20,596 nt of DNA, from NCBI GenBank assembly GCA_048885865.1, contig JBHLLF010000010.1, positions 62,915 to 83,510 of the forward strand. Direction: 5' to 3'. The position numbers and the translations under genes are program-made. The notes under the pieces are model-generated. The model did no database searches, was not told where the DNA came from, and saw nothing but the letters and a program-made list of their open reading frames with translations. Every line of letters begins with the position of its first letter. Position 1 is the first letter of the stretch. This document shows, piece after piece, positions 2,793 to 16,237 of this stretch. The stretch comes from Candidatus Hermodarchaeota archaeon (GTDB taxonomy: Archaea; Asgardarchaeota; Thorarchaeia; Thorarchaeales; Thorarchaeaceae).

Positions 2793-3518
2793 CTATCTGA
2801 AGGTACGCAGGCCCTTCTTTCCTTCCACTAGAATCAATGCCTGTGATTCAGAACCTATTGTGCTGCGCTCGACCAACACACGAATCAGATTCTTCCCAAC
2901 GTCCAGTCGATCAACTCTTACCACAGAGTCAACAGCATGAGCAAGAACATTTCCACCAATGGGTATAGGTCGACCCGAATTCCAGCTTCTAGAAGAGTGA
3001 TCTGTCATTAAAAGATGAGTTCCAATCTCATTCACTAGTTCCCTTAAGACCTCAAGACAATGAAAGAGCTCTCTTTGCCTCCCTGAACTTCCTGGAGCTC
3101 CAGAAAGATTGAGAACTCCTGTTAGACTGTCCAGCACTATTACAGATACAGAACTCAAGTTTGGAATGCTTCTACTGAGATCCTCCAGGTCTGAAAGACT
3201 CAATACATTCCCGACAATTACACGGCCCAGTATCTTTGACACCTTTTTCTTTGAATTGCACATTGCTCGAGCTAGAGTGGGACTGTAATTCGAGCCCGAG
3301 TCAATATAGACCGCAAATCCCTCATCTAGTTCAGCTGCGGCAATTGCTATGGCGTGGGCGAGAGTCGTAAGGGGAGATCGCTCAGGGCCATGAAGAAGAC
3401 TTAGTTGTTCGGGTGCGAGAATGGTTCCTAGCAAGTCGTCAAGTTGCTTCGGGGCAAGCGATATTGCGGATTGTGAATTGATATCTAGTGAATCAAGTGG
3501 AGTTCGCAAAGGTGTCAT
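2793..3518 (-). CDS. RecA/RadA-fold paralog with degenerate Walker A (probably ATPase-dead)
   Basis: LHGPERSPLTT at the P-loop position (no GK), VYIDSG, Walker B IVLDSLTG, RadA-type PIGGNVLAHAVD. Start ATG 3518 (or TTG 3509) after AGGAGG; the start is uncertain. Confidence 0.8.
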   Translation of the reverse strand: MTPLRTPLDSLDINSQSAISLAPKQLDDLLGTILAPEQLSLLHGPERSPLTTLAHAIAIAAAELDEGFAVYIDSGSNYSPTLARAMCNSKKKVSKILGRVIVGNVLSLSDLEDLSRSIPNLSSVSVIVLDSLTGVLNLSGAPGSSGRQRELFHCLEVLRELVNEIGTHLLMTDHSSRSWNSGRPIPIGGNVLAHAVDSVVRVDRLDVGKNLIRVLVERSTIGSESQALILVEGKKGLRTFR

Positions 3519-4440
3519 TGGCCTCCTTAAGATTAGTATATCTGTGAAGCAATAGTGCATTGACAAGTTCTCTTTCAGGAACTCTTTGAGAGATTAGACC
3601 TGGTGCTGCTGATTCAGGATAGATGACTCTTGGACCGGTTCTACTAGGGAAAACAAACATGCGTGAAGGAGGATTCCGTATTAGGTGATTAACAGTATCC
3701 TGATCAGTAGCCAAACAATATTCTGCCATCGAAAGGCCATGTTTCTCATCAATAAGAGGGACCTTGAGTATTGCCTCCCGCAAGAGTGGTGACGCATCAT
3801 TCTTTATTGCAACGCTTGCTCTCAAGAGAGTATCTCGAATCTGATTCAAACTTGCCCTCTCAGACTTTATTTCAATGAAGAGGACGTCGCATTCATTGAA
3901 GTGAGTCAATGAAATTGGTAGAAGTGGTCGATCTCTCATCAGCATGATAACATTCTCTCGGCTTTCAGGCGGGAGTAGTGCAATATGATCTGAAACTTGC
4001 TTGCTTATCGAAAGCTCAGGGGTTCCTGGGTTTCGGCTCAGCCAAGATATTGTCGAGTCTGGGGACAAAGTTGCCATCCATTCTTTCAGGTTGCTTGAAT
4101 CATACATTACTGAACATACAATAATCGTAAGTGCAGCACCCAAGAGGGATGGAACCATCCCATAGGGCAATAGTCCAACGAACGCTACCACTGCAAGATA
4201 TCCTGAGGCTGCATAGGCGAGTATTCCTAAAATCGCTGATAGTGCATGTTTGGCCAATAGTCGTTTCAACTGAATCAACGCCGCTGTTGTGCCAATGGCA
4301 ATAATCAGTGGAATGATATTCCCATTTCTGAAGGAAATAACCACAAGTGCCACTGATGAGAGTAATTGGGCACCACCCGCCAAAGCCATTGCTCCTGCTA
4401 TCGCCAAACCGATAATCTTCAAGATTCCTCTTCCAAGCAA
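3493..4440 (-). CDS. Membrane protein of unknown function (about 4 N-terminal TM helices plus soluble C-terminal domain)
   Basis: Hydrophobic segments IIGLAIAGAMALAGGAQLLSSVALVVISF, IIPLIIAIGTTAALI, ALSAILGILAYAASGYLAVVAFVGLL, MVPSLLGAALTIIVCSVM. Start reassigned to TTG 4440 after GAGGAGTGGT (alternative TTG 4422 overlapping the upstream TGA). Confidence 0.75.
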   Translation of the reverse strand: MLGRGILKIIGLAIAGAMALAGGAQLLSSVALVVISFRNGNIIPLIIAIGTTAALIQLKRLLAKHALSAILGILAYAASGYLAVVAFVGLLPYGMVPSLLGAALTIIVCSVMYDSSNLKEWMATLSPDSTISWLSRNPGTPELSISKQVSDHIALLPPESRENVIMLMRDRPLLPISLTHFNECDVLFIEIKSERASLNQIRDTLLRASVAIKNDASPLLREAILKVPLIDEKHGLSMAEYCLATDQDTVNHLIRNPPSRMFVFPSRTGPRVIYPESAAPGLISQRVPERELVNALLLHRYTNLKEANDTFANST

Positions 4441-5105
4441 TTCGTGACCACTCCTCGGCGATATGAAAGAGAGAGATGGCAAGCTCCGTCTTTTAGGACC
4501 TTGAGCTGCGCGATTTTGCGACCATAGCCATTCTCCACAATTGACACAGACGACACTTTGCTGGAAAAATCTCTGCAAACCTTGACAGTGATATCTGCCC
4601 ATTTTGCTATTTCATTAGAAAACACTGGATGATTGCCAATCTCAGGAAGAAATCTCATTTCACTTACAACAATGACATCTATGCCTCTTTCCCAGCATAA
4701 TGCTCCTAGTATGGGCAGCGCCTCTTCAATTAGCGCCTGCCCCCAAAGGATGGGATCAGTTCTTGACATGTCAAGCACCCTTGTAATAGGGTCAATGACA
4801 ATTAGAGAGGTGTCTGGTGCTATCGTCTTGGGCAAGCTTAACATAGCATCCAGTGTCTGCTTGTGACCTTTTGTCATCATAACAGACACATTAGTCTCTA
4901 GTCCCCTGAGATGCTTGACTGTTGCCTTCAGATGAGGTATGAACCGTTTCTTTGAGTCAGCATTTATCCACTCTACATGAGATGTACGAGATGCATCTGC
5001 TGCGATAGTCGCCGCTAGCAAAGTCTTGCCGGATCCTGCAGTTCCTGTGACATGGATAAAACCTCCGAGCTCCAATGATGCGCGAAGGCTGTATTCACTA
5101 CCCAG
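4419..5105 (-). CDS. RadB-like RecA-fold ATPase (RadA paralog lacking the N-terminal HhH domain)
   Basis: Intact Walker A TGTAGSGKT, WINADS in place of YIDTE, Walker B LIVIDPIT, late motif HPVFSNEIAKWAD. Start uncertain: CTG 5105 with GGAGG 9 nt upstream, TTG 5075, or ATG 5171. Confidence 0.8.
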   Translation of the reverse strand: MGSEYSLRASLELGGFIHVTGTAGSGKTLLAATIAADASRTSHVEWINADSKKRFIPHLKATVKHLRGLETNVSVMMTKGHKQTLDAMLSLPKTIAPDTSLIVIDPITRVLDMSRTDPILWGQALIEEALPILGALCWERGIDVIVVSEMRFLPEIGNHPVFSNEIAKWADITVKVCRDFSSKVSSVSIVENGYGRKIAQLKVLKDGACHLSLSYRRGVVTNCLEEES

Positions 5106-14729: not shown

Positions 14730-15173
14730 CTACCACGCCTCCATTGGAATGGTGACTAGCACACCGTTCTTGATTACCTCGCCCTCTGAAACGAGGGAGT
14801 CAAGGAAGGTCATTGCACGAGAGATATCGATGCCTGCATCGCTGCATTCTCTCATGACATCTTCAATCGAAACTGGTCGCCCTCTGTTGAGGTCAACTAG
14901 CGCTTCGACGATATAATAGACACGCCTCTTAATGCCCAAGCCCCTCCCTCCGCCCCGAGGTTTGGCATTCTGGCGCGATTCTAGCACAAGCTCACGGACA
15001 CTCGCTTGGGCTTCTTGAATTGTAACTGCATAGATTGTTCCAGGTGCATGAAGAATCAGACTCCTGCATAGGCTGCATCTTGACTCCTCTTGCTCATTCT
15101 CGACAGCTGTGTATCCTATGTTGGTGCAACTGGGGCACTGGTAAACTCTGAACATCCCTCGTTCTGAGGTCAC
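14730..15173 (-). CDS. Zn-ribbon (CxxC...CxxC) plus C-terminal winged-helix protein (DUF1922/DUF5817-like architecture)
   Basis: YQCPSC...SRCSLC, a Gly/basic linker (KPRGGGRGLGIKRR), and wHTH-like IVEALVDLNRGRPVSIEDVMRECSDAGIDISRAMTFLDSLVSEGEV. GTGA overlap with the radA stop. The family name is from recall only. Confidence 0.78.
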   Translation of the reverse strand: MTSERGMFRVYQCPSCTNIGYTAVENEQEESRCSLCRSLILHAPGTIYAVTIQEAQASVRELVLESRQNAKPRGGGRGLGIKRRVYYIVEALVDLNRGRPVSIEDVMRECSDAGIDISRAMTFLDSLVSEGEVIKNGVLVTIPMEAW

Positions 15174-16237
15174 CCAGCTTCACCTGCCTTAGCTTGCGGC
15201 GCCTCAGCCTCCTCGAGTTCAATCTCAGTCTCTTCTTCAGTGACGCCTTGCTTCTCGAAGTACTCAAGAATCTCTGGTTCCTTCTCCTTCTTGCCCTTGG
15301 AATCCGAGTACATCCCACCCCAGCCTACGACCATTTCTACATCGAACTCAGGAAGCCCCGCATTGTCTATCAGTTGCAGCTTTCGCTTGTCGTCCTTTGT
15401 CCTGCGGGTATAGAATCTGTAGTCACTAGCATGGGATAATATGTGGCCCCCGATTGGAGCATTATCATACCCACCGTAGGTGCTTATCTTAGACATCACT
15501 TGATTCGTGTAGACGAATATTGCGTCAGTGGCTTTCGCGGTTCTTCTCATTTGGTTTAGAAGCGCATTCATCTCCTGCTGACGGATTCTCAGGGACTCCA
15601 GACCTGTGTACTCCGCACGGAAGAGCCCGGTGAATGAGTCAATAACAACCAAGACATAGTCTTGCTCACTGCAGAGTTGGGGAACGGACTCGAATATCTC
15701 CTGAATCTGATCAGAGAGGAAGACCTCTGCACGTCCTATATTGCCTAATGTAATGTCAGGGTCAAGACCCCATCGAATGGCATTGGCTCTGATCGTATAG
15801 GGCTTGAATGATGACTCGCTGTCCAACCACAACACTCTGCCTTCTAGGCCCCCCTGGTCTCTCGGGAGTTGTGCTCGGACCGCTAAATGCGCACTAAATT
15901 GCGTCTTCCCGCCGCGAGCCGGGCCATAGCACTCAACGATAGAGCCGACTTCGATGCCTCCAAAGAGTGCTTCGTCCATTTTCTCGATGCCCGTCTTCAA
16001 GCGGGATTTTGATTCCATCTCTTTCTCAACCTCAAGGCCAGACTTGAAGCCGTGCATACCCAGGAGGATTCTGGCGTTTCGAATGATTTTTTCAACAGTG
16101 CCTTCCCCGAGCTTTGTTTTCTTTTGCAGCTCAACAGGATTCTGAACAGCTAGCAACTCAGCTGTTGTGACAAATGCCTCCCTCAGCTTCTTTGCGGCAG
16201 CAGGTCCAACACCAGTCACTCCTTCCAGCTCAGTCAT
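15170..16237 (-). CDS. radA: RadA/Rad51-family recombinase, full length but divergent
   Basis: N-terminal HhH (LEGVTGVGPAAAKKLREA), GFKSG at the FxxA polymerisation motif, LKTGIEKMDEALFGGIEVG, Walker A GPARGGKT, LDSESSFKP, Walker B VVIDSF, FRAEY...RQQ, TNQV, PIGGHILSHAS, and an acidic tail. ATG with AGGAGG. Confidence 0.92.
   Translation of the reverse strand: MTELEGVTGVGPAAAKKLREAFVTTAELLAVQNPVELQKKTKLGEGTVEKIIRNARILLGMHGFKSGLEVEKEMESKSRLKTGIEKMDEALFGGIEVGSIVECYGPARGGKTQFSAHLAVRAQLPRDQGGLEGRVLWLDSESSFKPYTIRANAIRWGLDPDITLGNIGRAEVFLSDQIQEIFESVPQLCSEQDYVLVVIDSFTGLFRAEYTGLESLRIRQQEMNALLNQMRRTAKATDAIFVYTNQVMSKISTYGGYDNAPIGGHILSHASDYRFYTRRTKDDKRKLQLIDNAGLPEFDVEMVVGWGGMYSDSKGKKEKEPEILEYFEKQGVTEEETEIELEEAEAPQAKAGEAG

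Follow-up and report, generated by a model that had tools for sequence, protein, structure and literature searches.

Helper proteins made from crippled RecA folds are known from archaeal RadB to the human RAD51 paralogs. RadB is a recombination mediator in Haloferax volcanii (PMC5480776). HELQ binds RAD51 and BCDX2, while a contact between Hel308 and RadA in archaea is still unproven (PMC13623763). Second RadA clades have been described in Heimdall-, Njord-, Gerd- and Lokiarchaeia, and in the same study the trees place Rad51 and Dmc1 outside all the Asgard RadA paralogs sampled there; Thorarchaeota are never mentioned in it, and long-branch sequences were removed (bioRxiv 10.1101/2025.05.23.655837). 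We describe here an operon of Candidatus Hermodarchaeota archaeon (order Thorarchaeales) that encodes a second RadA, RadA2, together with two short RecA-fold proteins. It lies in a stretch of 20,596 nucleotides (contig JBHLLF010000010.1, positions 62,915 to 83,510; G000:C10:62915-83510), called the window below, of a metagenome-assembled genome (MAG) of 3.58 Mb that is 87% complete. The operon consists of 14 minus-strand genes, read from 17453 to 1789, with stops and starts that mostly overlap; unless otherwise indicated, coordinates are those of the window. A preliminary description, made from the sequence alone, had read part of these genes as an operon-level precursor or analogue of eukaryotic RAD51 and its mediators. 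We propose that the operon is a second, private recombination toolkit on a membrane complex, in which a recombinase works with accessory subunits, and that it is an analogue and not an ancestor of the eukaryotic mediators; we give this proposal about an even chance of being correct. We found no paper on the operon, on a SWIM-Hel308 fusion or on the short paralogs.

RadA2 and the two short RecA-fold proteins

RadA2 (15170-16237) was identified with Pfam, NCBIfam and an alignment of its orthologs. It matched Pfam Rad51 with 187.6 bits and HHH_5 with 31.7 bits, and scored 267.5 bits on the NCBIfam RadA model PRK04301, above the cut-off of 259. The score on TIGR02236 (243 bits) was below the cut-off of 361, and those on the RAD51 and DMC1 models (200 and 197 bits) were far under the respective cut-offs. 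The protein has what is expected of RadA, Rad51 and Dmc1, i.e. an HhH N-domain followed by an ATPase core with GK[TS], Glu, Walker B and GGH. Its catalytic motifs (Walker A G..GKT, the Glu of DSE, Walker B, TNQ and GGH) were invariant in 13 orthologs, the invariant residues being G105, G110, K111, T112, D139, E141, D200 and G263-H265. Thus, the one full RadA of the preliminary description was confirmed. The ratio of nonsynonymous to synonymous substitution rates (dN/dS) amounted to 0.02-0.03. In the linker, RadA2 reads F-K-S-G (FxxG) where RadA has FxxA (F-E-T-A in the housekeeping RadA of the same genome), F64 and G67 being at least 90% conserved. RadA2 also has a C-terminal extension (15170-15320), made of a conserved GWGG, a Lys-rich stretch and then a very acidic tail, which the housekeeping RadA is devoid of and which may be a docking element.

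With the RadA2 profile, Pyrococcus RadA scored 273 bits, human RAD51 240 bits, Dmc1 about 220 bits and RAD51B 102 bits. The ratio of the RAD51 score to the RadA score was about equal for RadA2 (200/267) and the housekeeping RadA (339/479). The 150 nearest relatives of RadA2 were taken from 1.8 billion representatives, and the ten proteins sampled among them for Rad51-like lengths were all archaeal RadA. In the tree, RadA2 formed its own clade on a fully supported long branch and was not nested within the Thorarchaeota RadA clade; this separating branch rules out a recent duplication of the housekeeping RadA as the source of RadA2. The branching order within the clade was roughly congruent with that of canonical RadA, with end branches of 0.22-1.1 as compared with 0.02-0.14. 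In one genus, a tandem extra RadA2-like gene is present beside RadA2 (L024 / G021:C15:37219-38151), with a branch of 3.7 changes per column. For RadA2-like representatives at a greater distance (P0002, P0010), the contigs were not long enough to provide a gene context.

The first of the two short proteins, the P-loop paralog ('Ploop269', 269 amino acids, 4419-5228), comprises only the RecA core, its first ~45 residues and its start codon being uncertain. It was identified by profile, fold and motifs. It aligned with RadA2 in hhalign with 95.9% probability (E 6e-9). The core of its AlphaFold model had a pLDDT of ~90, and the top Foldseek matches of the model were Dmc1, RadA and RAD51 (E 4e-10), with RAD51 paralogs and RecA also ranking high. 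All the matches listed through rank 50 were Rad51, RadA, Dmc1 or RecA, without any KaiC, and the titles of the PDB entries included RAD51 paralogs capping filaments. As the preliminary description had it, Walker A is intact and the DTE is replaced, so that the catalytic Glu is absent: GxxGxGK[TS] and the Walker B Asp were kept in 37 of 37 species, in all of which D-x-K replaces the Glu. The best PDB profile match was RadB (2e-4), as compared with 3e-3 for RAD51D, and its own profile (A1) matched RadB-like genes with 52-63 bits. The score on the RadB models themselves (TIGR02237 / PRK09361) was 18.8 bits for a cut-off of 172.4. From these comparisons, the P-loop paralog appears to be nearest to RadB-type proteins.

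The second short protein, a dead RadA-like paralog of 241 amino acids that is also core only (2793-3518), was identified by profile and motifs. Its true start is at 3518 rather than 3566, because relatives carry an upstream stop. Its alignment with RadA2 had a 98.8% probability in hhalign (E 8e-17), and its profile (A2) matched RadA (E 1e-16), RAD51D (1e-8) and RadB (4e-5) in the PDB. The absence of the Walker A Lys, already noticed in the preliminary description, proved constant, since GK[TS] was missing in 33 of 33 species and the site reads HGxERxPLT; DSG takes the place of DTE, and PIGGN is retained beside L2. This protein scored 52.4 bits on the RadB models (cut-off 172.4) and lacks the GK[TS] expected of a RadB. 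Its dN/dS was 0.13-0.23.

The grouping with KaiC/aRadC signalling ATPases that the preliminary description had set against its own proposal was not seen, neither short paralog having any Pfam or NCBIfam match to the KaiC (PF06745) or KaiC_arch models. The Shu proteins Csm2, Psy3 and SWSAP1 were absent from the matches listed in the PDB profile searches of either of them. In a tree of the Asgard RecA folds, the P-loop paralog grouped with proteins of the RadB type, and the dead paralog branched off deep, on the side of RadA. Because of this placement and of the RadB-like matches of the A1 profile, we assign different origins to the two helpers, one RadB-like and the other RadA-like. The trees contain only Asgard sequences and derive from quick searches with long branches, and are to be treated with care; with the same care, the idea that the three RecA folds of the operon are recent copies of one another is rejected. 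Both short paralogs are under purifying selection, and they are therefore working genes with fixed, different ATPase defects.

The same genome holds a housekeeping set elsewhere, with a canonical RadA (479 bits on the RadA model), a RadB-like gene (159 bits), a canonical FEN1 (437 bits), XPD, Hel308 (621 bits) and a further short paralog, which lacks Walker A and retains FxxA. The short housekeeping RecA folds are found at G000:C2:9662-10144 (L004 1282-2088, minus strand) and G000:C40:13507-14103 (L003 1459-2190, plus strand). The RadB-like protein has an intact P-loop and is encoded a few kb from the canonical XPD, with a 255-residue opposite-strand open reading frame in between. The other, a RadA paralog of 268 amino acids, keeps FxxA and misses the P-loop Lys; it is probably conserved, since matches of comparable size and similarity occur in many related Thorarchaeota genomes and in one further Asgard family. 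A graded trio of RecA folds is thus present twice in this genome, and the housekeeping trio would be the more natural starting point in a search for relatives of the eukaryotic paralogs.

Helicases, SWIM insert and membrane context

The helicase encoded at 6710-8917 was recognised by its motor motifs, which are all intact and invariant across orthologs, and by its profiles. These matched Hjm/Hel308 with 365-380 bits, the Brr2/ASCC3 cassettes similarly and PolQ with ~189 bits, so that the protein is a Hel308/Ski2-family helicase in general rather than the specifically HELQ-like one that had been announced. On NF040935 it reached 294 bits, over model positions 10-419 of 704 and for a cut-off of 1200, as compared with 621 bits over positions 1-677 for the housekeeping Hel308, and it is accordingly not recognised as a full-length Hel308. 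Domain 4, of the C-terminal ratchet, was weakly matched in 11 of 12 orthologs.

After the motor comes a SWIM-type insert, with its zinc motif at 7262-7309 and the modelled module at 7118-7564. Residues C537, C539, C550 and H552 were invariant in 12 orthologs, down to 40% identity. The signature is CxC-x10-CxH(xxA) in the window and CxC-x9/10-CxH across orthologs, most of which read CxHLVA, i.e. the CxHxxA of the Shu2/SWS1 type. The score on Pfam SWIM (PF04434) was 11.4 bits, below the gathering cut-off of 19.6, and 2 of the 12 orthologs matched with E values up to 1 (best, 0.0097). The model of residues 452-600 (pLDDT 81) comprises four strands, with CxC after the last strand and CxH starting a helix. 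Among 48,161 chains it had a single clear structural match, ZSWIM8 (Z 6.4, root-mean-square deviation 3.5, 88 residues; next match, 3.7), and a Foldseek search with the module gave no match below E 1e-3. On the strength of the motif and the model, we accept the insert as a predicted SWIM-type zinc module, as the preliminary description had recognised. A search of 5.8 billion proteins with the SWIM region returned 54 proteins, of which all the named ones were from Thorarchaeota; the sources annotate them only as 'DEAD/DEAH box helicase' or 'superfamily II helicase'. A second SWIM-bearing Hel308-like paralog was found on another contig of the same genome (G000:C13; L115 9596-11812, plus strand). 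It is 25% identical to the first, with the SWIM at the same position, a degenerate DExx box and motif VI, and unrelated neighbours (PAC2, PUA, succinyl-CoA ligase); it is well conserved across Thorarchaeota and mostly annotated 'hypothetical protein'.

The other helicase (12151-14106) is the second XPD/Rad3-family Fe-S helicase of the genome. As expected for this family, C106, C124, C133, C183, GKT and DEAH are invariant. It matched Pfam DEAD_2 with 76 bits, Helicase_C_2 with 82 bits and the Rad3 model TIGR00604 with 163 bits (cut-off 247). Its score on the PADLOC 'type IV CRISPR DinG' model, 250 bits, was above that on the Rad3 TIGRFAM.

That such a set might be a homologous precursor of the eukaryotic RAD51-paralog/Shu/HELQ network, and so be relevant to eukaryogenesis, is where we depart from the preliminary description. 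The host is indeed an Asgard archaeon, the SWIM carries the Shu2/SWS1-type CxHxxA in most orthologs, and human HELQ binds BCDX2 (PMC13623763). Against these points, RadB or RadA is a better match to the short paralogs than is any of RAD51B/C/D, XRCC2/3 or Shu, for which their profiles have no preference; RadA2 is RadA-like and scores as an archaeal RadA; the SWIM is an insert in a helicase, not a small Shu2-like protein, and recurs in a second helicase elsewhere; and the range is lineage-specific, being Thorarchaeota plus a reduced form in Jordarchaeales, with no SWIM module found in four other Asgard genomes searched. The published trees, in which Thorarchaeota go unmentioned, keep Rad51 and Dmc1 outside the sampled Asgard RadA paralogs (bioRxiv 10.1101/2025.05.23.655837). 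We consider a homologous precursor highly improbable. The other part of the earlier proposal, a recombinase with an accessory set, remains reasonable, the three RecA-fold genes being constantly associated with those of the SWIM-bearing Hel308-type and XPD-type helicases.

In the order of transcription, the 14 genes encode two conserved, unrecognised proteins of 250 and 155 amino acids (16234-17453), RadA2, a small protein with a 4-Cys zinc ribbon and a winged-helix-like part (14730-15173, overlapping the end of radA2), a conserved soluble protein of 208 amino acids with an unrecognised fold (14103-14729), the XPD-type helicase, a protein with two transmembrane segments and a soluble domain (11550-12149), a membrane-anchored HerA/VirB4/FtsK-like protein with a degenerate P-loop and a C-terminal winged helix (8914-11271), the Hel308-type helicase, a second protein with two transmembrane segments, preceded by a soluble N-domain and followed by a helical part and an acidic tail (5098-6708), the P-loop paralog, a polytopic membrane protein with a soluble C-domain (3493-4602, the start being probably near 4482), the dead paralog and a divergent FEN1/XPG-family nuclease, the second of the genome (1789-2793). 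PDB profile searches with the zinc-ribbon protein and the 208-residue protein gave weak or no matches.

The start of the HerA-like gene was set at 11271 because close relatives carry upstream stops. The top PDB profile matches of this protein were HerA chains, with weak E values of 0.012-0.17, and the ten best family-bearing look-alikes found with a language model all belonged to the HerA/DUF87/TrwB/VirB4 families (Atlas features 0.91-0.93). The P-loop is degenerate, reading GGTxxERR, and its Lys is lost. The evidence for a HerA/VirB4-like assignment is weak and consistent, and we use it as a probable one. Because of this protein and of four membrane proteins, we place the toolkit at the membrane. 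Tentatively, one may go further and suppose a membrane machine that takes up or exchanges DNA and recombines it by means of a dedicated recombinase, mediators, helicases and a flap nuclease. This is possible, with a chance well short of even; if true, Asgard archaea would have in this operon an equivalent of natural transformation or of Ced-type exchange, with a four-gene core (RadA2, the RadB-like P-loop paralog, the HerA-like protein and the FEN-like nuclease) common to Thor- and Jordarchaeia. No pilin or VirB6-like protein was identified in the operon, in which no search was aimed at these homologues.

Distribution and history of the operon

The public sequences nearest to the genes of the window all bear the label Candidatus Thorarchaeota or the generic one Promethearchaeota, which makes the host an Asgard archaeon. 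A scan for the P-loop paralog over one genome per GTDB species gave 37 loci, all of them syntenic and all in Thorarchaeota or unassigned Asgard MAGs, and the operon order was kept in at least 37 Thorarchaeota species. Complete synteny was also observed in 12 related genomes. Together with its GH3-family neighbour, the operon keeps its synteny in close relatives and in each of the eight other genera of the family, and does so in part in a second family of the order. Purifying selection acts on all 14 genes (dN/dS 0.02-0.42). Taken together, the gene comparisons indicate that the operon is vertically inherited and Thorarchaeota-wide. The GH3-family amido synthetase (17986-19542, plus strand) is a constant neighbour at the operon head. 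An unrecognised protein of 598 amino acids (10-1806, plus strand), convergent with the nuclease gene, adjoins the operon in most genera examined, with 23-31% identity.

These flanks bear on the idea that the set is the replication or recombination module of an integrated virus or plasmid, which could explain a second, divergent copy of core DNA enzymes in a single operon. Since the flanks are fixed across genera, the inheritance looks vertical and no tRNA or integrase is present, we rejected this idea as scarcely credible.

Several observations weigh against our proposal of a private toolkit. Some species of the same genus, one of them represented by a 92%-complete MAG, seem to be without the operon, although MAG incompleteness clouds such calls. 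In the complete, single-contig MAG CP070658.1 (Thorarchaeota bin8 chromosome; L061 5460-8387), the segment from RadA2 through the N-terminus of the helicase is deleted and a FAD_binding_2 domain is fused to the helicase remnant, while both short paralogs and the nuclease are still open without RadA2; the locus may be a true relic or have arisen from an assembly join. From these absences and this deletion, the operon is dispensable. The P-loop paralog, with a dN/dS of 0.30-0.42, is the least constrained gene of the operon. Finally, the second SWIM helicase lies outside the operon, and the SWIM therefore need not serve the short paralogs.

Dispensability in some species would also fit a defence against viruses or plasmids, in which incoming DNA is sensed or attacked at the membrane, as would the faster evolution of these genes relative to their housekeeping counterparts and the matches of the helicases to HamB and type IV DinG models. 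The combination of membrane proteins with a nuclease and helicases recalls Zorya-like systems. Yet a PADLOC scan gave only generic helicase matches (HamB, BrxH, type IV DinG) and no system, dN/dS is low throughout, and the single copy at a fixed site by the GH3 gene, family-wide and with a vertical-type tree, is unlike defence islands. A defence function thus seems to us quite improbable.

Two other versions of the locus are informative. In a sister family of the same order (G025), the SWIM helicase and, downstream, two short paralogs are present in a different arrangement, near a giant surface protein. Two unrecognised proteins and the surface protein replace the genes after the SWIM helicase there (G025:C1; L028 3-4391, minus strand). 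The surface protein is longer than 1463 amino acids, with a prenyltransferase-like toroid, Ig-like and filamin domains, and the short RecA-fold genes lie further downstream (G025:C1:4049-4546 and 2240-2635). In Jordarchaeales, the counterpart is a compact operon of eight genes (L109 2155-8369, plus strand, G030:C5). Four of these are homologous to genes of the Thorarchaeota operon. Their products are a RadA paralog that branches beside the RadA2 clade (278 bits), a nuclease of the FEN-like type (115 bits), a HerA-like protein that has the same degenerate P-loop, GGxxEER (57 bits), and a RecA-fold protein with a P-loop (43 bits). The compact operon further comprises a protein with two transmembrane segments, a polytopic membrane protein and a zinc-ribbon protein, similar in build to the Thorarchaeota ones, and no XPD, SWIM helicase or dead paralog. 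From the four-gene overlap, the old core would therefore consist of RadA2, the RadB-like helper, the HerA-like protein and the nuclease, and the Shu-like features appear to be later Thorarchaeota additions.

The company of the HerA-like gene, which the P-loop paralog keeps in Jordarchaeales too, raises the question of whether the short paralogs instead belong, as regulatory subunits that sense nucleotides or as structural ones, to the membrane HerA/VirB4-like complex or to the helicases, by analogy with ArlH, a RecA/KaiC-like protein that binds the archaellum ATPase. A P-loop paralog that keeps its ATP-binding motifs without the catalytic Glu in 37 of 37 species could play such a part next to a HerA-like protein that has lost its own P-loop Lys, and the short paralogs persist without RadA2 in CP070658.1. 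Nevertheless, both have RadA, RadB and Rad51, and neither KaiC nor ArlH, as their nearest matches by sequence and by fold, the dead paralog keeps PIGGN beside the DNA-binding L2 loop, and a RadA2-type gene is present in every intact version of the operon. We hold this role to be unlikely.

Proposed function and comparison with known systems

Returning to the private toolkit, RadA2 would be an active strand-exchange ATPase and a working recombinase. The RadB-like P-loop paralog would bind ATP and probably hydrolyse it poorly, and the RadA-like dead paralog would be unable to bind ATP in the usual way. Because they are devoid of N-domain and FxxA, the short paralogs could accept the motif of a neighbour and could not donate one. 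They would then be accessory subunits that nucleate, cap or stabilise RadA2 filaments, as do RadB, Rad55-57 and the RAD51 paralogs. The SWIM-bearing Hel308-type helicase and the XPD-type helicase would translocate on single-stranded DNA with opposite polarity, and the FEN1-like nuclease would trim flaps. What the sequence analysis shows is the folds, the states of the motifs, their conservation, purifying selection, synteny and the membrane context. We infer the mediator role, any contact made by the SWIM insert and the DNA substrate, the first of these from family knowledge of RadB (PMC5480776) and of the RAD51 paralogs.

Two independently derived putative helpers hold fixed and different ATPase defects class-wide, beside a private recombinase and a Hel308-family helicase. 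The fixed linkage of the genes provides genomic-context support for the Hel308-RadA-paralog link that is still unproven in archaea, and the operon forms a compact group of partners that lends itself to experiment. From the membrane context, one may suspect a pathway of DNA handling, not described so far, in the closest archaeal relatives of eukaryotes. The operon also calls for caution, as Asgard look-alikes of eukaryotic networks should not be taken for ancestors.

Compared with the RadA and RadB of Euryarchaeota, the locus similarly combines a full-length recombinase with core-only RecA-fold paralogs devoid of the N-domain, and RadB comes out nearest to the P-loop paralog whether profiles, genomes or trees are compared. 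It differs in that both short proteins are far under the RadB cut-offs, one being without the P-loop Lys and the other without the catalytic Glu, and in that they are placed with a second RadA in a membrane-linked operon, while the genome has its own RadB-like gene elsewhere. Like the second RadAs of other Asgard archaea, RadA2 is an extra full-length RadA paralog; unlike them, it forms a long-stemmed clade beside the Jordarchaeales paralog. With the Ced / Ted DNA import systems of Crenarchaeota (PMC9905601), which are expected to have an active VirB4-type ATPase, a VirB2-like pilin and the VirB6-like CedA, the operon shares a chromosomal membrane apparatus, a probable VirB4/HerA-type component and a link to the recombination of cellular DNA, whereas its VirB4/HerA-like P-loop is degenerate and it has its own recombinase, paralogs, helicases and nuclease. 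The likeness to the eukaryotic helpers of RAD51 (BCDX2, CX3, Shu / SWS1-SWSAP1, HELQ) consists of ATPase-poor RecA-fold subunits beside an active recombinase, a CxC..CxHxxA SWIM motif with a Hel308-family helicase, and the presence of RAD51 paralog chains among the top fold matches of the P-loop paralog. In contrast, there is no specific sequence affinity, and the SWIM is part of a helicase instead of a small partner protein. In view of the lineage-restricted range and of the membrane-bound context, we see in the eukaryotic network an analogy only.

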